Assembly (NCBI GenBank): GCA_003990765.1
Contig: RBNJ01000105.1
Coordinates: 1-41,482, forward strand
Length of the DNA: 41,482 nt
Source: Jimgerdemannia flammicorona
Lineage: Eukaryota
Direction of reading: 5' to 3'
Of the stretch, positions 3,402-33,730 are shown piece after piece (positions within the stretch are counted from its first letter, which is position 1; each line of letters opens with the position of its first letter). Below the pieces are notes generated by a model, which saw only the letters and a program-made list of their open reading frames with translations, was not told where the DNA came from and searched no databases. The translations under genes and the position numbers were made by a program.

Positions 3402-3563
3402 AACTGCTAGAAGTACCCTCCAATCACCAGAAATACCCTCCAACTACCAGAAGCACCCTCTGACTGCCAGAAGTACCCTCTGATCACCAGAAATACCCTC
3501 CAATCACCGGAAGCACCCTCTGATTGCTGGAAGCACCCTCTGACCACCAAAAATACCCTCCAA
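3402..3563. repeat. 20-bp tandem repeat (CACCAGAAGCACCCTCCRAY-like, ~8 copies)
   Basis: Visible array; copies differ almost only by transitions. Confidence 0.9.
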
Positions 3564-3584
3564 CCCAGACTTAGACTTCTTGGT

Positions 3585-4112
3585 GGCTTGGGGTTGCTCT
3601 TATGCTACTGGTAAAGAACTGCAAATTTTGTATGCTCTCTCTGCCAACCCCACTGACCCCTGGCCTAGATATAGGCTACTTAGGGGTATCCTATGTAGCT
3701 GGTGGAGGGCTGCAAATTTTGTATGCTCTCTTCACCAACTCTCCCATCCCAGACACTGTGGTTTGGGGCTGCCCCTTACTGCTGGTGGAGGGCCACAAAT
3801 TATGCATGCTCTCTCTACTGACCCTGCACCCACTGATCCAGATACTGACAGCTTGGGGCTGCCCCTTGCTACTAGTAGAGGGCTGCAAATTTTGCATACT
3901 CCCTCTGCCTACCTTGCCCCCTCTACCTACCCCTCCACCCCAGTCACTTATGGCTTGAGGCTGCTCCTTGCTACTGGTAGAGAGCTGCAAATTTTGTGTG
4001 TTCTCTCCACTGACCCTGTGCCCACTGGCCCCACCCACTGACCTAGGCACTGACAGCTTGGAGCTACCTCTGCTACTGGTGGAGGGCCACAAATTTTGCA
4101 CACTCTCTCTGC
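3585..4112. repeat. ~85-115-bp spaced repeat (core GGGGCTGCCCCTTGCTACTGGTRGAGGGCTGCAAATTTTG, 6 copies)
   Basis: Core recurs near 3590, 3683, 3765, 3855, 3958 and 4060; the minus strand reads repeated xQNLQPSTSSKGQPQ. Confidence 0.9.
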
Positions 4113-4244
4113 TGCCACCAACCCCACACTGCTCCTACTTAGGTCACAAACTCCAGACCAAGTTCTAAGTTTTTTTTATTCCTTTTATTTTTGAAGTATT
4201 AAATAGTCCACAAGATCAATTTAACTTATCAGTGAACCCCAGAA

Positions 4245-6790
4245 TCTGTTAAATTTTAGTAGCCCAAGCCCCACTAAGATTTCAGACATATACATGCCTG
4301 GATTGTCTCAGTATTCAGTACACATCTCTTAGGGGCAATGAGATCCACCCTACATGAGGACATCTGCTTGACAGGAGTACTGGAGACAGGAATCACTAGG
4401 TAGTCCCAAGCCATACCACACAGGCTGGGGAAGTCTGTTTGATGCAGCTACACACTCTAGTGGGTAGGGCAGTGGTTAGAATAGTGGATTAAATTGGCCC
4501 AATGCAATCAACCATCTGCCTAACAACTCACCTTCCACCAGTTGAGCACCTCTGTACCCTCTAGTAGGATCATGTGGTTGCTGGTGAGATAAATGGTGAG
4601 TTTGTCTATTGACAGCAGCTCTTTTACTGATGGCTCCCTCTTTCTCTTTCTGCTGAAGTAAATGTGGGACAGGAGGGATCTCTCAGCATATTCATCCAGA
4701 CTTCAGCCAGAACCTTGTGGCAGTGCATAGTTTTTCCAGTATATTTCAATTATGGCCTGCTTGGTTCTCTCAATGAAGTACTGCTCCCAGCCATGATCTT
4801 TATGGTATTGTAGCTTTAAGCATGGGTCCAGCACTGTTTGGAGAAAGAGAGTGAGGTTTTGTAAGAGTTTTTCTGTTTTTGGAACAGACAATGGCCACAT
4901 GCTGACATACCTGTACTAATTGAGTATATGACAGTATCTGTTTTGGAGTAGTATTTTCTGAGCTTACTTAGAGTAACCTTTATGACATCTCTCTGATCTG
5001 GGCTTAACCATAAATCACTGCAACCCTCCAGCCTGTTCTTGAGCTTATCCTCTAGCTGGTCAATTCAAAGGTTGTATACTGATATTGCAGAGCTTATTGT
5101 TAGAGTCGTTTGTTTGACTATATCCTTTATACAATTGTTGAAACACTAGCAGTTATGTGCAGTGAGGTATTATATTGTGCTGAGGCAGATAAAATGAGTA
5201 TGGAGCCAGAGCAATTACTACTTATTTCCAAAACTCTGATAATATTCCTAAGTATATCCCACTTGCTTTCATCTAGAGCCTCACCCTATATTTCCTTATT
5301 GGCAGCTACTGTGGAATCTATTGGCTTTTTTTGTTTTGTTTTTTGTTTTTTGTTTTTTGTTTTTTTTTTAAAAAAAAATCTTTAATCATCCAAAACAAGT
5401 TGCTTCAGCCAACTGAAGAAAAAAGAATGCATACTACAGCAAACTTCAGTACATACTGGATCATTGTAAATGTTGAGTTCCAATATATACAGACATTCAA
5501 TATAAGCTCTTTCAGAGCTAAACTGATTGCCCTACACTATGCAGCAAATTTGTCTTGTTGTTGTAGAGATGATCAGACTGATACAACCAGTTTGTATAGC
5601 TTGGAAACTATACTTAGAGCCCCTCCTCTCTCAGATATTTTGTCTATATATATAAGATAGTTCTGAATAGCGAGGTTCAGTATGTGGGCCTGGTATCATA
5701 TATAACAGCTTTCTGTACTAAAGGCCACATTTTTCTGTTTAAGGCTGGCTACTAAAACTTGGAAAAATATTGAGTTGTTTGTAGTATTGTCTGTCATAAT
5801 AGCCAAAATCTGTACTTGAAATATTTGGTCAGCAGATTTATGTGAAAATAAATAACTAATAAAATCTGTTTTGTTTTAGGACCTCTCTCAAAATGCCAAC
5901 CTGACAGCAAGCCCTCCTTTTTACCTTAGTTGTGATTCCAAGCTCCTGGATACAACTAATAAATGCATCTGGGATATTGTCTCCAGAATGAGGGTCCACA
6001 AGTTTGATGAAGTCAAGGGTGAGAGATTTAAGCTACTAATTGAGGTCAATCCAATAACTGGTAATGCTCAGAAATGAAATTATATTGGGGGATGTCTATG
6101 TATTGATTGTAAATAAAATTTTGCCTGCCAAATTCTGCTTATTGAATATGAGATTAAATTGGTGAGCTCTTTATAAATATATATATATATAATTCAGCTT
6201 GCAAAGATCATAGTGCTGCTCTTATTTATTTATTTTACCTAAAGTGTCTGATGGAGATTGTCTTGCTCCTTCCTATAGGCCTCTAGGACCTCTTTGCAAA
6301 TAGTGTCAGCACTTGACAAATATAAATCATGCTTGAGGAGGCAAAAGATACTATACAATTGATCACTCTTGATGGTTGTAAATGGCTAATCTGTATACAC
6401 AATCTAATGAATGAGCCAATTTTGAAATTCTACCAAAGAGTATAGCTAAATATTTTTGATTAAATGGGGTTGTTGATACAGAAATGGTCAGGCAATTGAA
6501 TAAACATATCCACTATAGCTTGGATATCAATTTTATTTATCTCCATGTTCTTTTTGATTTTATCAGAGTGCTTGTCTTTTATATATCAATATATGTTCAA
6601 AGTTGAACTACTAAGTATTTTGAACTTCTGGCTATGCAGTTTATGGGGGTAGATGAAAAAGTATCATGTATGTGTCAAACCAAAGTATCAGTTATATGTC
6701 TTCTTTTTTTTTTTAATTTTTTACCTATAATAGTTACAAACAACATCATCTCTTATCTTAGCACAATGTTGTCAGATTTCAGAGCAAGGA
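4245..6790 (-). pseudogene. hAT transposase pseudogene (intron-containing, many stops)
   Basis: Minus-strand motifs in the expected order: TINT*TSPN..FLSITSYWID (~6050-6110, cf. TxDxWTS), HSGDNI (~5975-5992), ILAIMTDN (~5787-5810), AHILNLAIQ (~5663-5690), VLDPCLKLQY (ORF 4703-4900), and the dimerisation domain FPSLCGMAWDYLVIPVSSTPV...ETIQACICLKS (~4275-4435). Confidence 0.9.
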
Positions 6791-6964
6791 TTACATAGAA
6801 GATGTGGAACTATTGGGGATGTTTGACTTGAAGCATCATCAGTACTGTGAACTGTTGAAGACTGATCTATCAATATGTATTTGTATGTGTATACATGTGT
6901 ATTTGCATATGTATTTGTATGTGTATATATTGTGTATATAGATGTATCTGGAATATGAGTTATG

Positions 6965-7215
6965 TAGAGGATTTAGATTGGAGAATTTAGTTGAAGGATT
7001 CAGGTGAGAATTCAGATTGAAGGATTCAAATTAGAGGATTCAAATTGGAGGATTCAAATTAGAGGATTCAGATTGAGTGATTCAGATTGAGTGATTCAGA
7101 TTGAGTGATTTGGATTAAGTGATTTGGATTGAGTGATTCAGATTGAGTGGTTCAGATGGGGTAGTTCAGATAGAGTGATTTGGATGGATAATTTGAATAG
7201 AGCAATTCAGATAGC
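6965..7215. repeat. hAT subterminal tandem repeat (TTCAGATTGAGTGA / TTCAAATTRGAGGA, 14-bp unit)
   Basis: Visible array just inside the right TIR. Confidence 0.9.
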
Positions 7216-7860
7216 TTTGGATTTGAGATTCAGATCAAACTGTCATGTGACAAATTGAATCCAGATTTGATTTAAATTGACTCATTCAGAGCACTAGTTC
7301 CAATATACTATTATATAGACAAATAAGGAGATATAATCCCAAAACCACTCTTTTTAGATGACTACTTTATCAAAGATAATATCATTAATATGACCTCATT
7401 AAAGAGTATTCAGATAGTATATAAACCTATAAATAGCTTAGCAGTCATTAGTATAGTTAGATTAGCTCTATATTATGAGGCTGTATATTGACTCAGCAGT
7501 CAGTTGATCTCTTGATATATCAGTTAACACTTATACTATATAATGATATTCTGACTTATTAAGCACTAAAATACTATACTCAATTTTAGTCTAGTCCAGA
7601 TAGCCTTCCATTAGTATAAATATCCCCTCCCCCAAATCTCAGAAACTCAGACATAAATAGATAAGAATATAACTAAGAATCAGATGAACACTTTCTCTAA
7701 CAAATATCCATTCATATATTACTTCTAGTATTAGCCAATAGCAATATTATAAATAGTAAATAAATCTATTAAATAATTCATAAACTACTCTTAACTAAAC
7801 CTATACTATATTAGGTTCCACTCTTAATTAAATTTAGAAATTTCTTAATTTAGTATTATC

Positions 7861-8120
7861 TGTAGTAATATATTGATTCAACTAAGCTAATCTTAGTTTA
7901 TTGAACTTTCTGAAATAAGAAAAATTCTGAATATTCAGAATAAGTCTGAGAAAGGACTTTAGTTAAAATAATAACCCAATCTTGAAATCAATAAGTATAG
8001 AGAATATACTCAATATGAAATTGATCTTGACCTTAAGAAAATAGTCTTCTAGAATATCCTAAACTTTTAGAAAATTCTTTCAAAACTATGCAACAGTACT
8101 TTAACAAAGTACTCTTTACA
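7861..8120 (-). mobile_element. Probable 3' LTR (260 bp) of a truncated LTR retrotransposon
   Basis: TGTA...TACA termini; minus-strand polypurine tract GAGAGAGGAGGGAG (8123-8136) immediately upstream; minus-strand AATAAA near 7900. No partner LTR in the window. Confidence 0.6.
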
Positions 8121-9659
8121 AACTCCCTCCTCTCTCAGATCTACTAACTGCTCACCTATCTTCTGACCCCCACCACTTATCTCTATCAACTTATCCCAGA
8201 ACTCCTCAGATATATCCTATAGCTTAAGCTCTGGATCTATATTTAGAACCCTATATATAACTAGAGTCTCAGTCTTCATCTGATCTCCCTCAACCATAGT
8301 ACTCCTCCTTTGGACCACTCCTATTGCTAGATTATTACTCTCTAGCCTTATCCTCTTTTCAGCTCAGATACTGGTCATTATCTCTATTCCTTCAGTATCT
8401 AGACAATCTTTAGCCTCCCATCCAAGTCTGCTAGGAGATTCTTCTACCTCTATCTCTTCTGAGCCTTCTCTCATATAGTCTGATCTAGCTATACCCTCTT
8501 GTTATTAATAATCTCTACAACTGTCCTAGTCTCATACTCCTTCCAGACTACTCTGTACTACTTTATCACTTCTATAAGATCTTTTAGAGACTCTAGTAAG
8601 TTCTTCTCCTCCTCTAGAGTCTTCTTTACTCTTGATATCTTATACTTAATAAAGTTCTACTTTAATACTACTAGTCAGTTCCTTGTCTTCTCTGTATTCT
8701 CCTTCTCAGCTAGCTATATCTTAATATCTATATTATCTATTCTGAACTCTATTCTTTCTTATACTCAGAAGCTGATATCTATCATATACTCATATTTCTT
8801 CACTATATTTACAATTAGCTTCTTTGTCACCTCTCTCCTCACTATAGAAATATTTACCATTACTAGCTAGAGCTTTATCTCAAATATCTTACTATTGGAA
8901 CTACTATCTCTCCAAATACTACTCTCTTCTTCAGTATCTCCAGCATGAGCCCCTCTTTCTCAAATTTCACTTTTATCCCTTCCAATTCTTGTAGAAATAT
9001 CACTGAGGCAGCCTTCTTTATCTGTTGGATCAGTAGTCTTAGAACCAACTTTGCTATAATTGTTTAGCCCCTGAAGTACAAGTTGACTATAAATTCTGAT
9101 ACTGATTTCTTGAGTAATAGTACTACTACTAGGTCTGTTATACTATCTACCAAATTACTAGGCCTTATATTATCTACAAACTCAGCTCTCTCATTAGCTA
9201 TCATATTTGAATTTTTTTTTCCAAATAGCTATCATACAACTATCAGCAGTCTCCCTCTTCTCTCTAGCTACTACTCTACCAGCTCTATCACTCTAGCCCT
9301 CCAGAGTAGCTCTACCAGATTCTGTGACTATTGTCTTTCCCTTCTCTCTTCTCAGCTATATATCTAGCTCTGCAGATATACCTCTAATCTTAATATTATT
9401 AGCAAAGCTCATTCTTCTCATTTTCAGCCCCCCTCCTCCTGATCTTCTGCTACTTCTGGCCCTACTACTACTCTTACAAGAGTCTACAGAGCTCTCCCCT
9501 ACACTATACTTCCTCTCTATATACTGTTAGTTGAATATACTAGAGATCTTCTGCTCAGCACACTCCTCTAAGTTTTGAGTTAATGATATATTGCTAGTAT
9601 ATTTCTCAAGAAAACTATATTGAAAGGTTGAGAATTTATTATATAATCTAAATAATAGC

Positions 9660-12600
9660 TACTTATTGGTCCTTTCTATCTGTCTATTTCTCTATAGATA
9701 ATAAGCTGTAATTTAAAATTTAAATGTGCTAAATCTTATACTTCTTGTATAGAATCTAAAGAGCTGATTTATAAATTCTATTCCTCTATTCATTATTACT
9801 TACTTTGGTATCTTGAATTAGCAAATGATTTCTCTATAAAAAATAAATCTGCAATTAACTATATATTGGCTTCTTTAAGGAGTCCTGCTTCTATCCATTT
9901 TGTAAAGAGATCTCTGGTGACAATGATATATCAGTTATCAGTTAATATTACAGATAGTGGGTTAATTACATCTATTATAATATAGATAAATAGTACTAGT
10001 TCTATGTCTACTAATTCTTATGTCTGATTTTATTAATCTTACTTCTATTTTTAATATTTATTACAGATCTTGACAAATCATCTGATATATTTCTCTATTC
10101 TAGACCACTATATTGTTCTTCTTATCTTATTATAGATATTTATTCCTTCTAGATAGCTAAGTTTATATACTAACTTTATTGTTTATTCCTTCTTATACTC
10201 TGATATAACTAGTAGTTTTTCTTTCTTTAGTATTTCTTTATCAGTTTTGAATTATTTTAAGATTCTATTAATAATCATTTATATTCTATCTTCTAGATAT
10301 TGGGGCATCTTCTAATATCTCAGATAGGTAATAATTTTATAGTAGAGTTTCTTATTTATTTTGGTTTTGCTGATTATAGATTATTTGGAATATCTATTAG
10401 AGTACTTTTGTATTGATATTAGCTCTTCTCAAGTAGTATATAATAATTATATTATAGGCTTACAGCCTCATGATCTATCTGATAAATATTTCTTTAGATT
10501 TACTTATGGTCAATAACTAGGTGAGAGCTGAATAGTTAGTTAGAATAGTGAAGTATCTTCTAGTAAGATAGTAGTGGAACTTTTCTATAGTCCAGATGAC
10601 TACAAAATACTCTAATATAGAATTTATATTCTTTTTCATTTTTGTAGATTTTTTAGCTAAGATATAAAATTATATATTTAACTTTATCCTCTTTTATATA
10701 AGGACTACTCTTAGGTCAATTGGGCTTATATCTGTCTGTAAGATGAACTTTTGAGATTAGTCAGATTGTCTCAAAATAGGTATCTGGATCAAATAGACCT
10801 TGAGATATTTGAAGGCTTATTACTACTTGTCAGTCTATTGAAACTTGATATCTTTCTTGAATAGTTTATAGATAGCCTATGATATTGAAAAATCCTTTAA
10901 TAAATCTTTTACAATAAGTATAAGTCCTATGAAAGCTTGAGCTTCAGTGACTATAGTGGGTCTTAGATAGACTACAACTACATGAATCTTGATAGAATCT
11001 GTATAGATTCTAGTCTAATTAATGATATATTCAAAGTAGAGATTTTGATTTCTGCAAACTTATATTTTTTTTAGCTTAATGAATAGACTGTGCTCTCTTA
11101 GTTTCTACAAAATTTAATATATGTAATTTAGATATTTCTTAGCTGTCTTACTGAAGATAATTATATCATCTATATAGATTATCATCTATTTTGTCATATT
11201 TTCTCAGAATATCTTATTTATCATTCTCTAAAAACTTACTGAGGTATTATATATGTATTCTAAATGGTATTCACAGATAGATATAGGTTCTATCTGGTAT
11301 AATGAAGACTGAATTTTTGCTGGCTTCTTTAGTAAGACTGATTTGATAGAATCCTAAATATAATCCAAAGTGATATAGTATTATACTTCATCTCTTGATA
11401 TTACCAGGATATTACTGATGAGTGGCAGTAGTTATTGATCCTTTTTGGTAACTTTATTGAGTTTTCTGTAGTCTGTACAGAGTTTTGGGGTAAATTCTTC
11501 TGACTTACTTTCTTTCTTCAGAGCTAGTATGATTGGTAATAACTATGGGCTAATGGCTTTCTTGATAATATTAACTTCTTTTATCTGCTTAATTTGTTCT
11601 TTGAACTATTCATGATATACTAGTGAAATTGGTCTTACTCTTTAGTAGATTGGCTCAGTGTCTCCTATGTTTACATTATAATAGTAGTATGGTATCTTTT
11701 TTTTAATATTCTTGAAATTAGTGACAAGGATATTTTTAAATTTATACAATAGCTTCTTGAGTTCTTTTTAGAATAAAAATTCATTTCCAATAGTATAGCT
11801 ATATTTTTTTGCAATTTTCTTATTTTTGTAGTCCAGATCAGTAATCTTAGTACTGATGAAAACTTCTTTTTCTATAGATCAGAATTCTTTTATCTTTCTG
11901 TTTTCTCTAACTTCTTTACTTCTAATATCTTGAATTGTAATCTATACAGATCAGCATTTATATAAGTTTCTTAACTATAAATAAAATTATAAAGTTGTAG
12001 TTTCTAGTAATATGTAAGTAGAATTTCTCTAATGTAATCAGAATTAATAACTCCTCCTTTAATCCAAATTTTGCTCTTAGTCAGGCTACTTCTTATCTTG
12101 AGTATTCCAACATATATAGTTCTTGGGAATAGTTATTTCTAGACCAGTTACAAGTAGAGTAGTTGTCTGAGGTTGAAGAATTATCTCCTTAACTATAGTA
12201 ATATCTATTCTAGCTATATTTTCTGACTTATATTCTAACAGAACTGCATCAGGATGAATCTTTTAAATCTTGATTTTGATGTCTTCTTTATCATCACTAT
12301 CCTTTAAAAGAGCTAGTGATTTATTCTCCTGATCTTCTTTTCTTATTACTTCTATCTTCTTTTCTTCTTCTTATAATAAATTTTATAGATCTTAGTAATA
12401 TATTAATAGCACTCATCTATATACTTCATATAGTATATCTAAATTCCATAGAGACAGACTTATTGTAGTATATATCTTTCAGCAATCTTTTTGCTTTAAT
12501 CTTCTTAATAACTATATAGGCCTCTTCTTGCCTGCTGACTTTTTTCTCTATTTCAGAGAGTACTTCTATATTAATATTGATTGAAATTCACATCTTTTCC

Positions 12601-13542
12601 CTTAGTAGACAATCTGCATCTTCTGAAAATTTATATTAATTATAGTCTTAGATTTGTGAAGCCACTGGTTGATAATATTGGTCTATTTATAATTCCTAAT
12701 AGTATTGCTTAGCTGGGCCTTACACTTAGTCTTGCTTATACATTTATAAGAGTAGTAGTCTTCTTTTCTACAAGTATAGCAGATTTCTCTCTTTTTATCT
12801 GTAATGGCAGTAAACTTCTAAACTGGGTGATAGTCTTTTCCTCTGATTTTCTTTACTATATCTTCCAGATATTCAGTCATTTTGATAAACTCTTGGCAAG
12901 TTCTCTATAGGATTGCTATTCCTCTATTACTCTATAGTATTTAGCTGAGGTATATTTGAATTGATTATAGTTATTGAGATTATTCTAATTACCTTAGATG
13001 CTTTAACTCTGACTCTAGTGACTTTCTCTATTTTATAGTCTTGAGAGTGTCTGACTATGTAATATCACTGAGCATATGTCACTTTTAAGGACTAGTAGTA
13101 TTGATCAGATTTCTATAGCTATCTCTGAGTAAATTTTCTTTATAAAGATTGCTTCAGCTACTTAATCTTTAATGATATCAACATAATTGATCAGAATTAT
13201 CTAATAGAGATTCAAGTATAGAAGGTATTTGAGTCTTTATTTATTTCTTAGTAGATAGTATTAAGTTAGTCCTTCAGAGTCTTCTTGATTTCATCTATAT
13301 AATAGATAGCTTATAGCTAGATCTTTTTTGCTATTAGTATTGCAGTATTATTATTTTCAGCATAATTCACAGTTATAAATATAGCTCTTGCTATATAGTT
13401 CTCAGAGACTGAATAGTATAGAAGTTATTTGCTATTTTACTATCAGAGGTCTTATGATAGTATATTGTTCAAAATTATCAAGAAAAGTAATAATTAATTC
13501 ATCAGAGATTTATAGAATACTAGTGGTCTCATATCTATCTAT
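9660..13542 (-). mobile_element. Ty3/Gypsy element B, internal gag-PR-dUTPase-RT-RNaseH-IN region, heavily decayed and 3'-truncated
   Basis: Minus-strand RT start KAISP*LLPIILALKKESKSEEFTPKLCTDYRKLNKVTKKD (~11438-11560) matches element A (QAISPWASPIVLASKKGSKPGEFAPKLCIDYRKLN). Integrase TAYYL*RNRQIERTNK (~9662-9712). dUTPase remnant present. Confidence 0.9.
11865..12280 (-). pseudogene. dUTPase domain of element B
   Basis: IHPDAVLLEYKSENIARIDI...LQPQTTTLLVTGLEI...ILKIRSSLTKSKIWIKGGVINSDYIREI is colinear with the dUTPase of element A. Confidence 0.85.
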
Positions 13543-13784
13543 TGTAATAGTGACACCTGAATGATAACATCAGCACAGAAGACAGTCTTTCCTTGCAAGC
13601 CACCAGATCAAAGTATAAGAAGATCATATGGCATATGAGATGAGCAATGATGATCAACTGTAAGTCATTGTGACTATAGTACAAGCATCCTGAGAAATAT
13701 AAAAGAAGAATCAAGGAACCACAGTAACAGTAACCAATAAGACCCACTAATCCCAAAATAGCTCAAAGACTCACTACAAATGAA

Positions 13785-14648
13785 ATGCCTGCTGCCTGCC
13801 AAACCTCAAGGTCAAGGAACCACCAAGGCATCTCAGTTGAAGAAAGAATGTTCCAAGACATCAGAAGAGCCATGAGGACCTACTCAAGAAGGACTCCAAG
13901 TGTCAACCTGGGTACTGGTGACCCTTATCACTATATCCTCTACTGCTGTGAAATGGAAACAAGGATCACCATTGCTACTGAATGCCTCCAAATGTGGCAG
14001 GAGTATGAAATAAGAAACCTCCTCTGCCAAGAGTTCTCACAGGCCAGCACTCAAGAGCTACAAGATACCACTTCCATAGATATATGTGAAATGAGGATAG
14101 CTAAGAAGATCCATCAGATCTTCAGGCATGCAGCATGGTCAATTCCCAACTTGGAGTATGTTAGAGTCTCAGATTTCAGAGACCTATCATCCTGCCATAT
14201 CAATACATTAGAAGCCAGGGTAGCTATAGAAGCCCAGTCCACTATCACTCTCAATAGTGATGAAGTAGAAGACTTCTGGCATCCCATCCTTCAGGACAAC
14301 CCAGACCAATTCCTACAAGGATTGATCTCAGTATTCCAAGGCCCAAGCATCCAGGTTAGACCTCCCCAAGACCTCATATTTGTTCTCTATTTTGTGGAAG
14401 AGAACCTCATAGACTGAAGAGCTCCAGATCTCCTTGTCCCCACTGCCACTGCTGAACATGATGATGTCATTAGCAATGATATCATCCCACATAATATCGA
14501 AGTATGCGAAACATATGACATATATGAGATGCACAATCTATATGATGACAACAATGAGACAGACAAGACATTCGCAGATCTCATCTCCTTCGAAGACATC
14601 CTGACCTCTGATGATGAAGCTCCCATGGTCTTGAACATTCTGCTCTAA
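13785..14648 (+). CDS. LTR-encoded accessory protein (~287 aa ancestral; one premature TGA at 14415-14417)
   Basis: 210-aa open frame. The stop aligns with TGG in the 3' LTR copy and the frame continues into an acidic tail ending at TAA 14646-14648. TATAAAAG at 13698 upstream; AATAAA at 14935 downstream. Confidence 0.75.
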
Positions 14649-15004
14649 GTATCTTGGTTACACTGAATAATGCCAGCACTGGTATTCTGAGGTGATGCGA
14701 AATTGTTCCAGCACTGGCATCTGATGTAATACTGAATAATACTAGCATCAGTATTCTGATATGATACCAAATTATACCAGCATCCTGAATCTGTACAACC
14801 ATCAATGCCGATCTAGAACTTAGCAGTTTTCCTGGCCTGGCATTTTATTTTAGTTATTGGAATTTATATTTAGCTTTATATCTTAGTAACTATTGAATTA
14901 TATTTTGTATAAATACCTCTCTTATTTTCTCTGAAATAAAGTCAGTTCCAGTTCACTTATACACAATCTCTTGCAAGCAATCTAAGAGATAACAAGACAG
15001 TTAA

Positions 15005-16203
15005 TTTTTTTTTTTTTTTTTTTTTTTTGTTTAACAGACTCTATGTCTCGCAGATTTTTATTAGAAGGGAACCTAGACTATATAGGCCAAAACCCTCCCC
15101 CACCACCCATCAAGCACTGCTCCCCCATTAACCTAGGCTAGCTATTGTCCAGCAGCTTGACCTTGCCAGGCGCAGCAGGGCAAAGTAGCCTGCACCTCAT
15201 TCTGCACACTATGCTCTCCCTACCACCAGGGGAAAACCCAGCCATATGCCAATGACCGAAAGCACATGCCCGAGAACTCAATGTATGTACAAGGCCACGC
15301 CCAAGCTGAATAGAATAGCCCCTGCCACCCCAAAGAGAATGACAGACAAAGAAAAAACTCTCATCAAAGCATAACATAGTGGGTAGGGCCTGGTTCTCCC
15401 AGTCAAGGTGAGTAGAGGACTTATATGTGAGGTGGGAGGAGACCCCCCATACCCCACTACTCAAGCCTGCAGGCCTCGATCACATTGCCATATCAGCTCC
15501 CTGTTCCAGTTGAGTGCAGTCAAGATACCTGAAATGGGTAGCCTCGGGCCCCCTGACCCCCCCCAATGACCGGGGCCCATCCCCATGAATTGCCAAAAGA
15601 AGCCAAGAGTGACACCTACCACCTAACCATGCTACACTAATCAAAAGGCCCCACTGAAGCAGCGCCCACCCCAGCCCTGATGACTGCCCCCAGCCTGGCA
15701 CCCTACTGATTCACCGTAATCACCCTTCCTCCTATCTGTAATGGCCATCTCCCCTCCCATCCCGACAACACCTGAAAAACAGTCACCTATACCAGAACTG
15801 TGCTTGCTGGGAAGCTCGCCAAAGCCAGAGGGCCCCACCACAGACACCGAGGACCTGCAGGTAGCCTATACTGAGCACTTGATGCCCAAGGTCAGCCGAC
15901 TCCCTATGTAGCCTAAGACATATCAAGACAACTCCTTGTTGGCAATGGCAAAAGGAAGAAGGCACTGCACCAAAATGGGCACACTCCAGATGCAGCCGAA
16001 GGCACCAGAATCCACGAAAAAGTGGAGGAAGCACCAATCTGACACCAATAAAGGGGCAACTCATCACCATTGCCCTCCTCCCACTATGCCCCTGCAGGCA
16101 CAGCAAACCAACCCGAGGTAGAGGGGGTAATAATAGGGGAAAGGGGACTCAGAAGGTTGCCTACCAAACCTTGTGACTGGTAAGGTAGCGGAGAAAGGAG
16201 CTG
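15005..16203 (-). mobile_element. Non-LTR retrotransposon insertion (5'-truncated LINE or LINE-mobilised element)
   Basis: 24-nt poly(T) at 15005-15028 (poly(A) tail on the minus strand), preceded by AATAAA; 14-bp TSD AACAAGACAGTTAA at 14991-15004 and 16204-16217; the empty site is present in the 3' LTR (~23508-23521). Confidence 0.92.
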
Positions 16204-16360
16204 AACAAGACAGTTAAAGATAAGAAGTTTGAGGACTGTAAGACCTTAGGAAGGCACTCCAATAAGAACTTGCTTATAACAAACTTGAGTTAGTCTAAGA
16301 GATACATCTTGAAGAGAATCTGATATATTTGAAGGACTCAGCAACCACTACATGACAACT

Positions 16361-16374
16361 TGGTGCCCATTGGC
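16361..16374 (+). promoter_or_regulatory. Putative primer-binding site of element A
   Basis: TGGTGCCCATTGGC lies 3 nt after the LTR end and begins with TGG (complement of tRNA CCA). The tRNA identity was not determined. Confidence 0.6.
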
Positions 16375-16477
16375 TAGTGATTCAAGATGAATCCCTCACT
16401 TTTAAGCTAAAAAACAAACAATTCCCACAACAACTACTCTGACTACAAGAGTCACCCCTACAAGAATTCAAGATAAG

Positions 16478-19400
16478 ATGGAAATGTGTCCTCCCACATT
16501 CTATGAATATACTACTGAAGAGTCAATCCAAACCTTCATTAAAGACTTTGAACAATTTGCCACTGTACAAGTCCTTGGTATAGATGCATAATTGGCCCTT
16601 CTACCAGTCAGCCTCAGAGGACCTACCAGAGATAAGTTCAATACAGTCACTATTGCTAATAATGGTGCAGCCAAACTTGCCAACATGAAGGCCTTCCTCA
16701 GAACAACATACTATACTGAAGAGATCAAGCAAGCTCTCAAGGATCAACTCAATACTATCTGCCAGAGACTTAGTGAAGATCCCAACTCATTCTATATCTG
16801 AATCTGCCACCAGATTGTCTTGGCTGACTATGATGATGCCCTCAAGGAACAAATAGCAGATTCAATCTTCCTCAAAGGAGTTCACTCTGAAATTGCCCTA
16901 GTAATCCAGTCTACCCTAGCTGTACTGACCCTTGATCAGAAAGTGGTCTTTGTACAGAGATATTAGACTGCCAGACACCCTGCTGAACAGTTAATGGAGA
17001 AAATAACTAGCATCAAGATGGAGCCATCAAAGCCAACTAGTATCATACCTGCCACAGTTGTAAACAGACAACCAACCCCACTTATCCCCAAGGTAGCCAA
17101 AGCTGACCCAGTAGAAGAACTTGCCAAGTAGTTCACCAAGATGACTGCATACCTTAGTAATGTTATTAGAAAAGTCTGAAGTGCCAACAGGAGACCAGTG
17201 CAGAGATTTGCAGCTACTACAGAAGAATGCAATATCACATGCTTCAGATGTAGAGAAGAAGACCACTATATGAAGAATTGCATGACTGAAATGAGACACA
17301 AGGCCCAACCAAGCAATGCTAGCAGAACTAAAGAACAAATCAATACAGTAGTCATCGAGGAGATTGGTGACACTAATGATGAAGAATACTATGAGGAGCT
17401 CGAATTCTACTCTGCTACTGAAGGTACCAGAACCCAGTCCAAGCCCTATGATAAGAAGAGCAACAGTAAGCCAGTTGGAAGACTAAAGAAGACCCCAGCT
17501 ATCACTATTCAAAGCAAGACTCAATCTAAGAAGATTGATCAAGACATGGAGTTAGATAAAGTTGCTTGCCAAATCATTGAAGGCACTACTCCAGTCTCAG
17601 GAGAAAGCGAAAGCAAGAAGGAACAGAAGCTGCACAAGACCAAGATCCACCAGTATGATATCTACAAGAATCTTAAGGAACAGAAGGTCAATGCTACTTT
17701 TGGACAACTAGCTGAAGTCCCTGTCTTCAGACAGCAGTTAAGAGTAGGACTTGCAACTACTATCAAGAATCAAGAGTACAAGATTGTAGAAGCTCATAAT
17801 GCACAGAAAGAATCCTAAAACTCAGGTGAAGAATCTGAAGACCAGCGCAAGACATCAGTCTATACCCCATATCAGATTGAAGACTATATCTTTGATGCCA
17901 TTATTGATGCTGGTGCTGGAGAATACCTTATGAGCAAAAAGACAATTGACTGCCTAGGTTGGAACATTGAAGAGTCCACTAAGATGATCTATATCACAGC
18001 AGATGGTATATGAGCTACCCCCCTTGGCAAAATCCGAGAAGTCCCCATCAAGATAAGAAGAGCTACCATTTCAGTAGATGTGATTGTTATAAGTGCCACC
18101 AACTATGACATCCTCATTGGCAACCAATGGCTTCACAAGGCCAAGGCCATCATTGACCTCAATATCCAAAAGATGCAGATCAACTACAGAGGAAGAAAGG
18201 TACAAGTCTCTATCAATGTCCACAAAGGAGTTCTACTAGACATGGAGGAAGGAGATGAAGAGAACACAGAGGTCTTCATTTACTCGATAAACAAAAACAA
18301 GAACAAGACACCCAAGCTCACAGATGAGCAGTGGTATAACAAGATCATCAATGGCTATGCCCCTCAAGAAAGATGCCTTCATGGTACTAAGATGTACTGC
18401 TCTGAACACCTGAATGACTGCTGGTCCTATATCAGTGAAGTCAGGAAAATCTGCCAATAGAAAAATGAGCAAGAAGCCATCAAAGTAAAAAAGAAAGCCA
18501 AAGAAGATGACTAGCCCCCAGAGCTTCAAGCTGATAGTGATGATAAGGAGGAACAAGAATCAGACATCACCCTCAAGGTCAAGATGTTTCACCCTGAAGC
18601 TAAGATCCCAGAATACAAGACTGAAGGAGCCATAGGAATGGACCTTGCCAGTATTCAAGATGCTACCCTTGAACCACAGACCACCACCCTACTTGGTACT
18701 GGAATTGGAGTCAAGCTGTCCAAAAACTATACCGGAATTATCAAGACCAGGAGCAGTCTGGCCAAAAGTGAAATCTCAGTTGAAGGAGGAGTAATTGACT
18801 CTGATTATACTGGTGAGATCTTCCTCATAGTCAGAAATCACAACCCCACCACCCTATTTGAAGTCAAGAAGCATGATAGGATTGGCCAGATGCTAATCTA
18901 TGAAATCAAGAAACCTAAGATCACTGAAGCCATCAAACTCATCAAGACTAAGAGAGGAGAACAAGGCTTTGGATCTACTGGAAGAGGATCCTATGCCACC
19001 ACCAAGATTACCGAACTTGAGTACAAGAAAGACAAGGAACAGAACAAGCACATATATACTATTGGAGAAAACTTTCCTCTAGAGGAACAACTTCTCAAGA
19101 TCCTGCACCAGAATGAAGGGGTACTTGCTACAGACTTTAGGGATATCCACAATCAAGAACCCAAGTACTACCATGAAGTTGATACTGGTGATATCAAGCC
19201 TATCTACCAGAAAGCCAGACCCATACCACCTGTCTATAGAGAATAGCTGCAAGCAGAACTCAAGGAAATGGAAGAAGCTGGAATCATCAAGCAAGCTATC
19301 AGCCCCTGGGCTTCACCCATTGTCCTTGCCTCGAAGAAAGGAAGCAAGCCTGGAGAGTTTGCACCAAAACTCTGCATTGACTACAGGAAGCTCAATGCTA

Positions 19401-21746
19401 TCACCAAGAAGGATAGACAGCCCTTGTCAAATATTCAAGAAATCCTTACCACCCTTGGAAGTAAAGCCAAATACTACACCACTCTGGATCTGTTCTCAGG
19501 CTTCCATCAGATTGGTCTCACTCAAGATACCAGTGAGAAATCAGCCTTCATCACACCTGACACCACCTATATCTACCTATGAATGCTATTTGAAATGTAC
19601 AATACCCCAGCAAGTTTCCAGCAAATAATGAACAGAGTCTTCAGCAATGAGATTGGAAAATGGCTCTTTGTCTATGTTGATAATATGATTATCTTCAGCA
19701 GTACTACATGGGAATATATCAATCACATACAGCTAGCCCTCAAGAAGCTCAAGGAGTATGACCTCTATATTAAGCCCAAGAAATGTAAGTTTGCAGCTCA
19801 AGAAATTGCCTATCTAGGACACCTCATCAACCAGACTGGAATCTACATAGACCCCATGAAGATTGAAGCTGTTGTAGCCTACCTGAGACCCAGAACAACC
19901 ACAGAAGTCCATGTCTTCCTTGGACTGGTCAGCTACTACAGAAGATTCATCAAAGGATATTTCAACATTGCAGCACCTATCTATGAGCTACTGAAGAAGG
20001 AAACCAAATTCGAATAGACCGAGAAGCACCAAGAAACCTTCAATAAACTCAAGACCAGGTTGACCCAAACACCTATCCTCAGAAGACCAAATTGAAACCT
20101 AGAATTCATCCTGCAGACAGATACAAGTACTATAGGACTTGGAGCAGTCCTAGCTCAGAAGAAAGATGGATATGAATATGTCTTCTCCTATATAAGCTGA
20201 GGTACTCACAGAGCAGAACAGAACTATGAGTCATACAAACTCAAATGCTTAGCAGTAGTCTGAGCAGTAGACAAGTTCCACTACTACCTAGCTGGGAAAC
20301 ACTTCACCATTCAAACAGACCATTCCTCTCTTGTCTGGCTATTCCACACTCTGAACTCTAAAGGAATATATGCCAGATAGATCTACAGGCTGTAAGAGTA
20401 TGACTGTACTGTCAAGCACCACTCAGGAAGAACCAATACCAATGCTGATGTACTCTCAAGAATACCCCAAAACACCCCCATCAAGATTACTCAACATGAA
20501 TAAGGAACTATACTATGGATTAATCAGCTATCTTGGATAGTGGAAGATGCCCAACCACCTCAAACTCTGGACAATTACTATTATCAACTGGACTTGGAAA
20601 CAGTTTGAACTAGACAACACTACACTCAGAAAAGGAGGAAAGCTAGTAATACCCAAACACAAGAAGTATCAAGTAATGAAGGAAGTACATGAGCAAGGAT
20701 ATCTAGGAGGAACCAACACATACATATGATAAGGCAAGAAGAACTATATAGTGGCCCAAGATGAAGAAGACCTGTGCCAATTTGTCAAAGGGTATGATAA
20801 GTGCCAAAAACAGAAATAAGATCAGCAAGACCAGGCACCCAGGTCATCAAGAATTGAGCCTATCCCCTTCCATTACATTGCAATAGATATCATTGGGCCA
20901 CTATCAGTAACACTATCAGGAAATCACTATATTATAGTTATTGTAGACCTCTTTACCAAATGGATAGAAGCAGGAGTATTATAAGAAGCCAATGCCCTCT
21001 CTATAGCTGACTTCCTGCACTGAGAAATTATCTGTCACTACAAGACATCAAAGCAAATTACAACAGACTGTAGCACAGAATTTGTCAATAGATTCCATGA
21101 GATATTATATCAGAAATACAAGATCCAGCACATCAAGACCACTGCATACTACCCTCAAGGAAATGGACAGACAGAGAGAACCAACAAGACTCTCAAGAAC
21201 ATCCTGGTGAAGATCTCAGAGACAAATGAGAGTTGGGATAATTATCTCTCAACTGCCCTCTCTGTCCTATGAGACATATGGTCACAGAGTACACACTTTA
21301 CCCCAAGGGAACTGCTCTTCAGAGAAGAAGATTCTGATGGAACCTCAGCCACAAATCTAGACCTAACTTAGAGATGGGTCAATGCAGAAATCAGGAGACT
21401 ACACTAAATCAGGAAGAAGGCTGAAGATTATATTATCAAGTCACAAGTACTGATAAGAAAGAATGTGGAAAAGAATCACAAGACTCTAGAACTCATCCAA
21501 ATCAGAGAAAAGGTCCTACTGTATTGAAATATGGTAAAAGCCTCATGGTCATGAAAACTGAAGCCCAAATGGGAAGGACCCTTCTACATGCAAGATATCA
21601 AGGGAACTACCTTCTGGCTTAGAAAAATCTCAGAGACTATACTGCCTATCATAGTACATAGAAACAGACTCAAGAAGTACCATGAACCTATACAAGAGAA
21701 GCAAAACATGATGATTGCCTGTGAGGTTCTAGTCCACGAATCATAA
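16478..21746 (+). pseudogene. gag-pol polyprotein of element A (Gag with zinc knuckle, PR, dUTPase, RT, RNase H, IN)
   Basis: CFRCREEDHYMKNC knuckle (~17240-17281); protease AIIDAGA (~17897) and DILIGNQWL; RT LCIDYRKLN, LDLFSGFHQI, VYVDNMII; RNase H LQTDTSTIGLGAVL; IN IDIIGPL, TTDCSTEF, PQGNGQTERTNKTL, WEGPF. Scattered in-frame stops. Confidence 0.95.
18570..18985 (+). CDS. dut: dUTPase domain between protease and RT (element A)
   Basis: All five trimeric-dUTPase motifs are open in ORF 18584-19246: AIGMDL, TRSS, GVIDSDYTGEI, DRIGQML, RGEQGFGSTG. Confidence 0.95.
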
Positions 21747-22059
21747 CAGCATATCTCATAACCAGCAGGCTATCTGTCTGGACCATTCTCTAAGAGATAT
21801 GGTACTAGCAACTACTCATCTATGAGACTTTCGAAGCCAGAGGAGTTTGAACTGTCAACTGATTGGTCAAGATCAGAATCAGGCCCTTGCTCTATATGAA
21901 GGGAGTAACCCTTCACCATCATGCCAAAATACAAAGGGAAGACACTAGCCCATAAACACCACTTTTCAACCCCTTGCCAGAGGTTATGGGATCAGCAAAT
22001 TTTTCAGGACTGGATCAATGAATAAGGACACTTGAGAAGATCCTTATTCAGAAGGAAGA

Positions 22060-23661
22060 TATAACAGTGACTTCAGAATGATGACATCAGCACAGGAGAC
22101 AGTCTTTTCTTATAAGTCACCAGATCGGAGCATAAGAAGATCATATGGCATATGAGATGAGCAATGATGACCAACTGTAAGTCATTGTGACCATAGTATA
22201 AGCATCCTGAGGAATATAAAAGAAGGATCAAGGAACCGCAGTAATAGCAACCAACAAGACCCACTAATCCCAAAATAGCTCAAAGACTCACTACAAATAA
22301 AATGCCTGCTGCCTGCCAAATCTCAAGGTCAAGGAATCACTAAAGTATCTCAGTCGAAGAAAGGATGTTCCAAGACATCAGAAGAGTCATGAGGACCTGC
22401 TCAAGAAGGACTCCAAGTGTCAACCTGGGTACTGGTGACCCTTATCACTATATCCTCTACTGCTATGAAATGGAAACAAGGATCACCATTGCTACTGAAT
22501 GCCTCCAAATGTGGCAGGAGTATGAAATAGGAAACCTCCTCTGCTGGAAGTTCCCATAGGCCAGTACTCAAGAGCTACAGATACTACTCCCATGGATATA
22601 TGTGAAACAAGGACAGCTAAGAAGATCCATCAGATCTTCAGGCATGTACCATGGTCAATCCCCAACTTGGAGTATATTAGAGTCTCAGATTTCAGAGATC
22701 TGTCATCTCACCATATCAATGCACTAGAAGCCAGGGTGGCTACAGAAGCCCAGTCCACTATCACCCTCTATAGTGATAAAGTAGAAGACTTCTGGCATCC
22801 CATCCTTCAGAACAACCCAGACCAATTCCTGCAAGGATTGATCTCAGTATTCCAAGGCCCAAGTATCTAGATTAGACCTCTCCAAGACTCCACATTTATT
22901 TCCTATTTTGTAGAAGAGAACCTCATAGACTGGAGAGCTCCAGATCTCCTTGTCCCCACTGCTACTGCTGAATTTAATGACATCATTGGTGATGACATCA
23001 TCCTGTACAACATTGAAGTACACAAAATGCATGACATATGTGAGATATACAACCTATGTGATGACAATGACAAGACAGACAAGATGTTCATGGACCTCAT
23101 CTCCTTTGAAGACATCCTGATCTCTGATGATGAAGCCTCCATGGTCTTAAACATTCTGTTCTAAGTATCTTGGTTACACTGAATAATACCAGCACTGGTA
23201 TTCTGAGGTGACACAAAATTGTTCCAGTACTGGCATCTGATGTAACACTGAATAATGCCAGCACTGGTATTCTAATGTGACACCGAATTATACCAGTATC
23301 CTGAACCTATATAACCATCAATGCTGACCCTGGAACTTAGCAGTTTTCCTGACCTGAAATTTTATTTTAGTTATTGGAATTTATATTTAGCTTTATATCT
23401 TAGCAACTATTGAATTATATTTTGTATAAATATCCCTCTTATTTCCTCTGAAATAAAGTCAGTTCCAGTTTACTTATATACAATTCCTTGCAAGCAATCT
23501 AAGAGATAACAAGACAGTTAAAGATAAGAAGTTTGAGGACTATAAGACCTTGAGAAGGCACTTCAATAAGAACTTGCTTATAACAAACTTGAGTTAGTCT
23601 AAGAGATATACCTTGAAGAGAATCTGATATATTTGAAGGACTTAGCGACTACTATGTGACA
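22060..23661 (+). repeat. 3' LTR of element A (1602 bp) with a second, broken copy of the LTR ORF (22302-23164)
   Basis: Direct repeat of the 5' LTR; ORF fragments 22365-22559 and 22592-22870 match the 13785 ORF. Confidence 0.95.
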
Positions 23662-23665
23662 CTAT

Positions 23666-24150
23666 CTAGATATCTTGGTTCAATTTAAGTATGTGTTTAG
23701 TGGATAGTAGTTGTTCATTGTCTAGCTTGAAAGTGAGAGATTTATCTTAAATTATCTATCAATGAGTACTAAGTTATAATGTAACAAATATATACTGATA
23801 GAAGTACAGCAGATTTCTTTATCTTAAATACTTGATCTTCTTTAACTCCTCAGAGTTCTCAGATATAGAGGTAGGTAAGTTCAAAGTATATCTGTCTGCA
23901 GGTTTACTAGTTTCTTATCCCTTTTCTTAAACTATTTTTATCTAAGGTTTATTTACTTTAGATATTAGAGATATTTATATAAGTTTGCTAGCTATATGGT
24001 AGCTAAGTTAAGACTTCTTTTTCTGTGAGTCATTTTATATAGTTGAGAGATCTATATAATCTATATAATCTATATAATTATAAGTTTTATATAGCTGTAC
24101 AAATTATATAACTGAGAGATCAAGTGACTACTAAACTATATACTATATTA
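23666..24150 (-). mobile_element. 5' leader, PBS and 5' LTR remnant of element B (right boundary approximate)
   Basis: Minus-strand ACTTAGTACTCATTGATAGATAATTTAAGATAAATCTCTCACTTTCAAGCTAG (23774-23722) aligns with the leader of element A, ACTTGGTGCCCATTGGCTAGTGATTCAAGATGAATCCCTCACTTTTAAGCTAA (from 16358). Confidence 0.75.
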
Positions 24151-24219
24151 TGTATATCAGGAATCAGATTCAGATACTGCAAACAAATATCTATCCCCTA
24201 ATTGTTTTATAGTTCTCTA

Positions 24220-25600
24220 AGTAAATAGGACATAATTCCAAGTTGTTACAATTATATCTCTATCAGTTATTAGAATATAAAGATATATATCTTCAATATA
24301 ATCTATATTATTCAAAAGCAGCAGTTATCCAATTCTTGATTTGAGCCATTTATAGACCATCTCTATTATCTTACCATCAAATTTTTTAGTATCTTCATAT
24401 AATCCAAGTTTCTTTACCAGCTGTCAGAACTTATCTAAAGTTATTTTACTACTATTGACTCAAAGCCAGAATATATAAGAATAGGGTTTATGGTATAGTT
24501 TATAATATTTCAACATGAGTTCAGTTTTCTCCATTCCACCAATATCTTTAAGAATTAGAATATGAATATCTTTAGAACTATTATCAAGAAGTATCAATTT
24601 CATTTATTTCAAAATATCCTCTCAGCCTATAAAAAGTTTGGTGAGTTTGATAAGAACTATATATATCTTTTTATCAGTATTACTATCATTGTATATTAGT
24701 GTTTGATAATATTGATAGATAGAATCTGGTTTACATATAACAGAATAGATCAAGTTATTATAATTTACAAATATATATTTCATATATTAAATTATATTAT
24801 ATTATTATAATATACTGATCTACTATAGCTAACAGTAGTATTAATAGTTCTAAGAAATATGGAACTACTATATATATTAATAGTATTTATATTGTTTATA
24901 TTTTGTACTAAGTTCTATATATAATTTACTAATGGTTAGTAGTAGTTATTTAGCTATCAATTATACTGAAAAATGTTGTTTCAATATCATAATTTCATAT
25001 TATCTTTATTAGAAGACATATTTAGATATTATTAAATAATAGGAGTAGAGACTCTCTCAATAGATTGAATGAGATTATACTCATAGAGGTAGTAAAAACT
25101 ACTTAATAGAGAAGACCTTTCTGAGAGGCTGATCATTGGTATTATATTATACTATTTTTGTCCTTTTTCAATATTAACTTTAGTTACCTTAGATAGTTAT
25201 AAAGTTTTCATAATACTAGAGTAGATATATAAGTAATCTTTTTTTAAGTCTTAATATCTTGAACAAGAATCTTCTTTATTATAAGCTTTTCTATTCTCTT
25301 TGTAGTTGTTATAGACTAGTTTTGTAGATTTAGTTTTTTTAAGAAATATTGTGGATTAGTCATTATTCTATGGGGTAAAGTCTAGCAAACTTTTAATATT
25401 GAGTATAAGAAACTGAGTATTTATATCAGAAGTACTATATAATTCTTTGGATTTTTACAAGTCTTCTATATTCGTATGCTTAATATTAAAAGAATTCTAA
25501 TTAACAACCACCAATCTTTCAATCTTGTATATAAAGGAAGACCTGGCTGTTATTTTTCAGAACTAAGTTATGTAAAAATATATAATTATGATAATTAAGT
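24220..25600 (-). pseudogene. NLR-like pseudogene: SesB/SERAC1-type alpha/beta hydrolase fused to an NB-ARC NTPase
   Basis: Minus strand, in order: IFLHNL (cf. VFVHGL), IEKLIIKKIL (cf. SMGGLIIK), YSVICKPDS (cf. HxxICKP), LFIG*EDIL (cf. FxGRE), LILKDIGGMEKTELML (P-loop GxGGxGKT), SYIFWL, VYKWLKSR, *LLLLNNID (Walker B WLLxLDN), DIIVTTWN (cf. IIVTTRN). Departures are mostly G>A/C>T. Confidence 0.75.
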
Positions 25601-31455: not shown

Positions 31456-31797
31456 TAGTGCTCTCAATAAATCAAATCAAAGATTCAATATGATTTAATT
31501 TGAATTAAATCAAAGGTCCTATTTGATTTAAGATTTGATTTGAACTTTATTTTTTTCAAATTTAATAATCTTTAGCTTATTAGATTTCTCTATATAGGTG
31601 AAATCTAATAAGCTAAAGATTATTAAATTTGAAAAAAATAAAGTTCAAATCAAATCTTAAATCAATAGGACCTTTGATTTAATTCAAATTAAATCAAATT
31701 AAACTTTATTCAAATTAAAAAATCCCCAATTTGATTTGATTTAAATAACTCTCAATTTAATTTAATTTGAATTAATTCAATTTATTTAAGAGCACTA
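31456..31797. mobile_element. hAT-type MITE (342 bp) with a long internal palindrome
   Basis: Termini TAGTGCTCT / AGAGCACTA; 8-bp flanks ATCAGAAC (31448-31455) and ATCTGAAC (31798-31805), 7/8 match; ~100-bp inverted arms centred on TATATA at 31591-31596. Confidence 0.88.
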
Positions 31798-33305: not shown

Positions 33306-33730
33306 GAAGTTGTACTCAATTTCATATGAGTCAACCCCAAGGCCCAGATCCCTCAAGCACAGTCAGAAGGAGCCATTGGTTTAGACCTTCAAGCAGTATA
33401 ACAAGTCACTATTCCTGCACATGAAAGAAGGCCCATTCCAACTGACCTTTCAGTTGAAATCTCCAAGGAACATTATGTGAGAATTGTACCAAGATCTGGC
33501 CTCAGTTTCAAGCACTCATTAGATGTTAGTGCTGGAGTCATTAACTCTAACTTCTGAGGTGAAATGTAAGTCCTGCTAGTCAATCACAAGAATCAACCAT
33601 ATACATACTATCAATGAAGGTGACAGAATGGCACAGCTCATTCTAAAACAAGTCACTCTACCAGTCATCAAAGAAGTCACCAAGCTGTCTCCAACCAAGC
33701 AAGATCAGAAAGGCTTTGGCAGTACTGACA
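33306..33730 (+). pseudogene. dUTPase domain between Gag and protease (element C)
   Basis: NPKAQIPQAQSEGAIGLDL...RIVPRSGLSFKHSLDVSAGVINSNF*GEM...EGDRMAQLIL...KGFGSTD. Confidence 0.92.

Follow-up and report, generated by a model that had tools for sequence, protein, structure and literature searches.

The window analysed here comprises positions 1 to 41,482 of contig RBNJ01000105.1 from Jimgerdemannia flammicorona (assembly GCA_003990765.1), a 41,482-nt stretch in which positions 13543-23661 constitute one structurally complete, stop-ridden Ty3/Gypsy element with a dUTPase domain (Table 1). Of its two long terminal repeats (LTRs), the 5′ one measures 1600 nt and is divided by an insertion into 13543-15004 and 16220-16357; the 3′ one (22060-23661) measures 1602 nt. 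Both carry the same open reading frame (ORF), which starts with an ATG 242 nt from the LTR start (13785 in the 5′ LTR) and, in the 5′ copy, ends with a TAA at 14646-14648. That one frame of this size lies at the same place in both LTRs agrees with what a sequence-only reading of this DNA had reported.

Table 1. Coordinates of the Ty3/Gypsy element, its LTR-borne frame and the insertion in its 5′ LTR.
Feature	Position	Strand	Evidence
5′ target-site duplication, CTAT	13539..13542	.	same 4 bases after 3′ LTR
5′ LTR, first 1462 nt, begins TGTAATAG	13543..15004	+	LTR pair alignment
TATAAAAG, candidate ORF promoter, 80 nt upstream of the ORF ATG	13698..13705	+	conserved at 22215
LTR-borne ORF copy 1, 287 codons, one in-frame TGA at 14415-14417	13785..14648	+	ORF reading, homologues
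Decayed direct repeats of ~35 nt between ORF stop and second TATA box, possibly enhancer-like by position	14660..14790	+	self-matches
TATAAATA, candidate core promoter of genomic RNA	14908..14915	+	conserved at 23425
AATAAA, candidate poly(A) signal, 27 nt past second TATA box	14935..14940	+	conserved at 23452
Secondary insertion in 5′ LTR, 1.2-kb poly(A) retroposon, 52% GC	15005..16207	-	28-nt T run, target duplication
5′ LTR, last 138 nt (U5 side), ends ...ACATGACA	16220..16357	+	92.9% match to 3′ LTR
Primer-binding-site-like TGGTGCCCATTGG, 3 nt past 5′ LTR	16361..16373	+	read in sequence; no tRNA matched
Degenerate gag (CCHC)-protease-dUTPase-RT-RNase H-integrase region, many stops	16406..21750	+	Pfam search
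Polypurine tract AGAAGGAAGA, abutting 3′ LTR	22050..22059	+	read in sequence
3′ LTR, 1602 nt, starts TATAACAG (TG to TA), ends ...ATGTGACA	22060..23661	+	LTR pair alignment
LTR-borne ORF copy 2, broken by three stops in frame and by a 1-nt deletion	22302..23164	+	ORF reading, copy alignment
3′ target-site duplication, CTAT	23662..23665	.	read in sequence

The two copies of the frame are damaged at different sites, as the earlier reading had also observed, and they have no lesion in common. Copy 1 is interrupted by the TGA at codon 211, where copy 2 reads TGG, whereas copy 2 has stops at codons 14, 86 and 190 and its deletion in codon 93. According to the earlier reading, a frame of about 287 amino acids with an Asp/Glu-rich tail can be pieced together from the two copies; the frame has 287 codons and its tail is indeed acidic, residues 217-287 holding 18 acidic residues (D+E) versus a single basic one (K+R). 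Codon usage in the ORF frame correlated with that of in-frame gag-pol with r=0.61, compared with 0.33 and 0.40 for the shifted frames, and the +1 and +2 frames of the ORF each tracked the corresponding shifted gag-pol frames (0.72 and 0.68). When the LTR was subjected to 1000 mononucleotide shuffles, an open run of 210 codons arose once.

Relatives of the encoded protein exist in metagenomes. A word-indexed search of 5.8 billion clusters yielded 5 proteins, 59-76% identical, among 273 candidates, and a profile search of 1,835,955,588 representatives returned 5 proteins at an expectation value (E) of 0.001 or less and no others; P0009-P0012 were new, and cluster look-ups contributed P0007, P0008 and P0057. 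The family thus assembled numbers about a dozen metagenome proteins, each encoded on one contig of 720-4848 nt from ENA or JGI/IMG. Every member is open, with frame lengths of 200-342 codons, and the members divide into four subfamilies (P0002/P0003, P0010/P0057, P0011 and P0012) with mutual identities of 27-48% over 133-275 residues.

The decay of the two local LTR copies, in which 97 differences brought 4 stops and 1 frameshift, provided a yardstick for these comparisons. By this yardstick, and with only one hit counted per changed codon, the probability that no stop arose on either branch ranged from 8.5e-06 to 3.7e-03 per pair for the nine between-subfamily pairs, and the 1-6 gap openings in such pairs were all in frame. 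This test is free of the bias of databases toward open frames because divergence between subfamilies must have built up along replicating lineages. The family alignment has in common the start MPA.R and a conserved core, W.P.LQDN.DQ.LQ....F.GP.I, with conservative replacements such as FLQGLISVFQGP versus WLQTVTDLFEGP. In the acidic tail, which varies in length, LI[ST]F and LN[FI]L persist as two short motifs with spacers that measure 31, 36, 37, 39, 46 and 55 residues. Since diverged homologues have stayed open, with conserved motifs and only in-frame changes in length, the frame is very probably a protein gene that is under selection in its family and is located in the LTR.

The element that carries this gene has the hallmarks of a Ty3/Gypsy retrotransposon. 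The LTRs have TG..CA termini, apart from the TA at the start of the 3′ LTR, and they are flanked on both sides by CTAT, a short target-site duplication as expected of this group. In the internal region, Pfam detected a protease (RVP_2, E 4.7e-06), a dUTPase (PF00692, E 7e-29) and two pieces of reverse transcriptase (RT; RVT_1, E 2.9e-08 and 1.9e-12), in the order protease-RT-integrase that characterizes Ty3/Gypsy elements and with the dUTPase between protease and RT. The zf-CCHC match fell below the curated cut-off (19.3 bits versus 20.8), and of the integrase only two successive matches, both below threshold, follow the RT (rve, E 0.031; rve_3, E 0.015). There is no extra ORF between the integrase pieces and the polypurine tract. 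The named sequences nearest to the RT come alike from a charophyte (Chara), plants (Tanacetum) and insects (Bombyx and Plutella) and are only 35-44% identical to it, which does not establish membership of a dUTPase-bearing Ty3/Gypsy lineage. ARAGORN found no tRNA gene in the window, and Rfam gave no match over positions 13000-24000.

The signals that the sequence-only reading had pointed out around the ORF, namely TATAAAAG at 13698 and 22215, a second TATA-like box at 14908 and the AATAAA at 14935, were read directly and are conserved in the 3′ LTR. Plus-strand TATAAA occurs in the 10-kb element only twice per LTR, and all of these are conserved in the 3′ LTR. The short 3′ repeats, likewise claimed earlier, proved to be real: besides the self-matches in the 5′ LTR, Tandem Repeats Finder (TRF) scored a 35-nt unit present 3.5 times at 23176-23296 of the 3′ LTR, the 5′ counterpart being too decayed for a TRF score. 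These direct repeats lie 120-250 nt upstream of TATAAATA.

We propose a layout in which U3 would extend over about 13543-14938 (~1.4 kb), followed by a very short R and a U5 of about 185 nt. Because the second TATA box is 27 nt before AATAAA, a start ~30 nt past the box would place the 5′ end of the genomic RNA at or just after this hexamer; the RNA would then lack the signal at that end, and polyadenylation would occur only at the 3′ LTR. A short R of this type is the layout of mouse mammary tumour virus (MMTV)-type LTRs. The ORF would then be placed in U3, as sag is in MMTV; its position within the LTR was observed directly and its assignment to U3 is read from the TATA and AATAAA motifs alone. 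It may be transcribed from its own TATA box at 13698 into an mRNA of ~1.2 kb that would end at the poly(A) site of the same LTR, and with its own TATA box, ORF and AATAAA each LTR would form a self-contained unit of promoter, ORF and terminator. Alternatively, a spliced subgenomic RNA could serve to express the ORF. In either case the accessory gene, which lies wholly inside the LTR, would be copied by reverse transcription to both ends of each new insertion.

A different reading of the same signals places the main start ~30 nt past the TATA box at 13698, which would give an R of ~1.2 kb and make the ORF the first cistron of the genomic RNA leader, present at both ends of the RNA. The conserved ATG does lie 80 nt behind TATAAAAG, an AATAAA does follow the ORF in the same LTR and no observation here fixes the start site. 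With such a start, however, an ORF of 864 nt would precede gag and transcription would need to read past the poly(A) signal of the 5′ R, and the spacing of the second TATA box to AATAAA together with the upstream direct repeats fits a short-R LTR by comparison with retroviruses. We therefore regard a long R as unlikely and retain the ORF in U3 as the working layout.

The ORF could also be a passenger, a gene of the host or of another mobile element that was captured by the LTR without serving the element, in which case the homologues would be the donor family. Each homologue is seen on a single short metagenome contig and not in its genomic context, and gene capture by LTR retrotransposons is documented in passages of a review (PMC7264820). 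However, no relative beyond the small family was found among the 1.84 billion representatives, and the codon phasing agrees with the element's own gag-pol. Genes transduced by such elements are present, according to the same passages, in a single copy or few (PMC7264820). In the soil metagenome run X1, 1715 contigs align to the stretch, 242 of them at ≥99% identity, with 29 of 30 bins covered, and the ORF segment is represented no less widely among them than other parts of the LTR. A captured passenger is likewise unlikely, slightly more so than the long R. Since soil metagenome runs contain many pieces of it, the element family is abundant somewhere in soil. None of the runs with such pieces is recorded as RNA; two of them, X9 and X10, might be RNA, and their contigs give no firm indication of expression. 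At many sites, related contigs read C or G against a T or A of the window copy, which agrees with decay of the window copy by deamination. Contig cover is little or none over 14450-14660, the acidic-tail region, where joints in single contigs skip ~125-127 nt; we read no more from this than the variability in length that the proteins show.

That there is no gene at all, the frame being a chance or relic opening in a long LTR and the similarity reflecting recent noncoding ancestry or a conserved cis-regulatory segment, would suit the broken and neutrally changing local copies, the good conservation of core LTR DNA across many contigs and the poor structure predictions, but it is hardly credible given homologous frames open at 27-48% identity with gaps in frame only, conservative replacements and retained motifs, a codon phase signal and an open run that shuffling reached so rarely.

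Nothing recognizable was found for the protein in Pfam, PDB, the ESM Atlas, Foldseek or VIA-align, and the statement in the sequence-only reading that the protein family was not recognised stands. Pfam-A assigned no family to P0001 and gave none above threshold in 10 of 10 members, the sub-threshold matches being ATG5_HBR in 3 members (best E 0.028) and FliL in 1 (E 0.1). A PDB sequence-profile search produced 0 matches at E≤10, and the Foldseek comparison that had been suggested for identifying the protein returned 0 PDB matches at E≤0.001. In the ESM Atlas the best feature score was 0.83 with a template modelling (TM) score of at most 0.33, and a wide VIA-align search gave 0 chains at Z≥5, the best (Z 4.8) matching one long helix only.

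The protein begins with a basic stretch of 50 residues (net +7 in P0002), is predicted to be helical from about residue 18 to 150, and ends in a tail with a net charge between -14 and -22 and with 31-37% hydrophobic residues. An acidic C-terminus interspersed with hydrophobic residues resembles transactivators of the VP16 and foamy virus Tas type, which we use as a working analogy, and the tail contains two conserved short motifs, DLI.F.D and VLNF. As other readings of the tail, a clathrin box, a SUMO-interaction motif, an LC3-interaction motif, LxxLL and an export signal were considered and rejected, none of them fitting all subfamilies. The product would be a soluble protein of ~33 kDa in which a basic N-terminal part precedes a helical core and a disordered, acidic tail bearing the two motifs. 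This architecture, with its short linear motifs, would best suit a nuclear trans-acting regulator, and we tentatively suggest that the protein could be one that raises the expression of its own family, either by transcriptional activation or by countering silencing. Roles in RNA export or anti-silencing may be variants of this idea.

Retrotransposon LTRs are treated as non-coding promoter and terminator modules and are masked in annotation. The nearest parallel is MMTV, in which sag lies in U3 upstream of the LTR TATA box and poly(A) signal; here too a frame of ~300 codons lies wholly in a long LTR, ahead of a candidate TATA box and a candidate poly(A) signal, and is duplicated at both ends. 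The proteins themselves differ. Sag, a type II glycoprotein, is held in the membrane by a hydrophobic anchor, whereas the LTR-borne protein lacks a hydrophobic segment (best 19-residue Kyte-Doolittle mean 0.64-0.74 in P0001, P0002 and P0011), is net acidic and is predicted to be helical or disordered; it is not Sag-like. Pfam and PDB profile searches revealed no sequence similarity to Sag, and the carrier here is a Ty3/Gypsy retrotransposon without env rather than a retrovirus. The accessory frames nef of human immunodeficiency virus (HIV) and bel/bet of foamy viruses reach into the U3 of the 3′ LTR and encode regulators that are not parts of the virion; they only overlap the LTR, whereas the present gene lies inside it from start to stop, and the Pfam and PDB searches gave no sign of homology to them either. 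In the literature, as far as extracts go, the term "LTR ORF" refers almost only to MMTV sag (PMC2118998), and one use outside MMTV means the gag-pol ORFs.

The gene can also be compared with the additional ORFs (aORFs) of LTR retrotransposons, such as the env-like genes of Athila and Bagy2 in plants, the antisense ORFs of Grande, RIRE2 and Retand, brtn of Boty in Botrytis and ORF3 of bdelloid rotifers (PMC7264820; PMC5408684; bioRxiv 10.1101/2021.04.13.439636; all in extract). The passages concerned describe aORFs as extra genes that are specific to one family and have no relatives beyond the elements; most copies conserve them, and their function is mostly unknown (PMC7264820); the present gene likewise has only its own small family as relatives among the 5.8 billion clusters and 1.84 billion representatives. 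The same passages locate aORFs in the internal region on either side of gag-pol (PMC7264820), and bdelloid ORF3s are described, in the parts of the source concerned with them, as separate internal units (PMC5408684). The present gene differs in lying 242 nt inside each LTR and not in the internal region, and a phrase search of the aORF review did not find "in", "within" or "inside the LTR" (PMC7264820). Literature phrase searches likewise brought up no case of a gene within the LTR of a retrotransposon, which is weak evidence of absence since most subscription journals were outside their scope. As for the dUTPase, extracts report such domains in bdelloid clades and in basidiomycete Ty3/Gypsy elements (PMC5408684). 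The element described here resembles them in having its dUTPase between protease and RT. For function, a parallel is CERV of the Caenorhabditis elegans element Cer1, the gene for which probably lies outside the LTR. As described in extract, CERV is an extra protein encoded by the retrotransposon that affects how the RNA of its own element is expressed or exported (PMC10309623), and by description it would have the kind of role proposed here.

On balance, we favour the view that the ORF is a genuine U3-embedded accessory gene of a dUTPase-bearing Ty3/Gypsy family, in a sag-like arrangement. Several observations weigh against it. Both local copies are pseudogenes, and the codon changes between them (50 nonsynonymous, 26 synonymous and 4 that involve stops) match the 557:278:23 possible transitions of these classes; therefore, decay after insertion was neutral. 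The earlier description of a complete-looking LTR gene stands as to its presence in both LTRs of a Ty3/Gypsy element, and the open homologues support a gene maintained in the family, but both local copies are dead. A search for related loci found no related DNA locus in metagenome, genome or viral contigs, and a 29-nt DNA pattern from the conserved core had no match in metagenome contigs. Placement in an LTR is seen for the copies of this element alone. As protein databases list called open frames only, the nearest homologues (70-76% identical) may simply be young copies that have survived. The U3/R/U5 limits, both promoters and the poly(A) site depend on short AT-rich motifs, and TATAAA is common in the AT-rich window, with 129 occurrences versus 94 ± 11 expected, so that the hexamer taken by itself does not exceed chance and is backed only by its position and conservation. 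AlphaFold2 on the 10-sequence alignment reached a mean predicted local distance difference test (pLDDT) score of only 51, and the model in the ESM Atlas scored 0.35. The proposed function draws on composition and motifs alone, with no fold or family behind it.

If the favoured view is correct, the layout of MMTV sag would extend from retroviruses to Ty3/Gypsy elements, the extra genes of LTR elements having been catalogued in the internal region only. It would also add a protein family of unrecognised kind to retroelement biology, and solo LTRs, commonly taken for inert scars, might turn out to be genes that code for protein. A more speculative extension, to which we give somewhat less credence than to the nuclear regulator itself, is that every LTR, solo LTRs included, is an autonomous gene and that the dose of an activator or anti-silencing factor feeds back on the family. 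Each transposition or LTR-LTR recombination would then leave a working copy of such a gene, and a plain Ty3/Gypsy element would possess a regulatory circuit like that of complex retroviruses, built from a fold not yet seen.

The divergence between the LTRs themselves is dominated by transitions, with 160 transitions, 9 transversions and 5 indel columns. Positions 13543-15004 and 22062-23521 are 89.4% identical over 1461 nt, and the end parts, 16204-16357 and 23508-23661, are 92.9% identical. The LTRs differ by 8-10% throughout except in the acidic-tail region, where the difference is 21%. Since the loose end of one related contig shows a CpG-dense version of the tail, faster deamination is the likely cause of this excess. 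Two further frames were seen in the same part of the element. An upstream ORF of 30 codons (13780-13872) has its ATG 5 nt before the main ATG in another frame, where the 3′ LTR reads ATA. On the minus strand, an antisense frame of 83 codons is open in both LTRs opposite the acidic tail (14387-14638 and 22903-23154) and is probably a by-product of GAT- and GAA-rich codons, the complements of which contain no stops.

Other mobile elements surround or interrupt the one described here. The retroposon in the 5′ LTR is flanked by a 12-14-nt target duplication, two copies of aacaagacagttaa (14991-15004 and 16206-16219), and has an AATAAA about 30 nt before its 28-nt poly(A) tail. A second, diverged copy, 68-85% identical, is present at 41026-41481. 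No Pfam domain was found in the two longest frames of the retroposon, which looks like a non-autonomous element dependent on a long interspersed nuclear element (LINE) or like the 3′ end of a LINE. Another, different Ty3/Gypsy element occupies 31815-37720, with 300-nt repeats that are 93% identical and 5606 nt apart, a CCHC knuckle, RVT_1 (E 9e-18) and pieces of RNase H. Its LTRs contain no counterpart of the LTR-borne ORF, and tblastn with the protein family gave only chance-level matches there. An older copy of the pol of the element at 13543-23661, 64.6% identical over 1819 nt, lies on the minus strand at 9865-11655 in sequence of 26-29% GC.

The base composition of the window bears the marks of decay. 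The observed/expected ratio of CpG is 0.05-0.10 in the elements, with an excess of TpG and CpA, and 0.00-0.01 in the flanks of 22-30% GC, where CpG occurs 2 times in 5000-13542, 2 times in 23666-31800 and 0 times in 37721-41000 (8.5, 8.1 and 3.3 kb). The flanks are also rich in TpA (TpA/ApT 1.06-1.18). The extreme loss of CpG, the excess of TpG and CpA and the preponderance of transitions between the LTRs point to heavy cytosine methylation or deamination, or to a process resembling repeat-induced point mutation (RIP). Classical RIP was rejected as the cause of decay, the composite RIP indices of the element being negative (-0.65 to -0.82) and only the old flanks coming near RIP-like values. 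Because the older pol copy is embedded in it and the flanks have lost their CpG, the AT-rich background looks like deaminated transposon debris produced by C-to-T decay. Apart from this background, positions 3544-4134 have 44-48% GC and are open in several frames on both strands; the recurrence of a peptide pattern there implies that the DNA is tandemly repeated.

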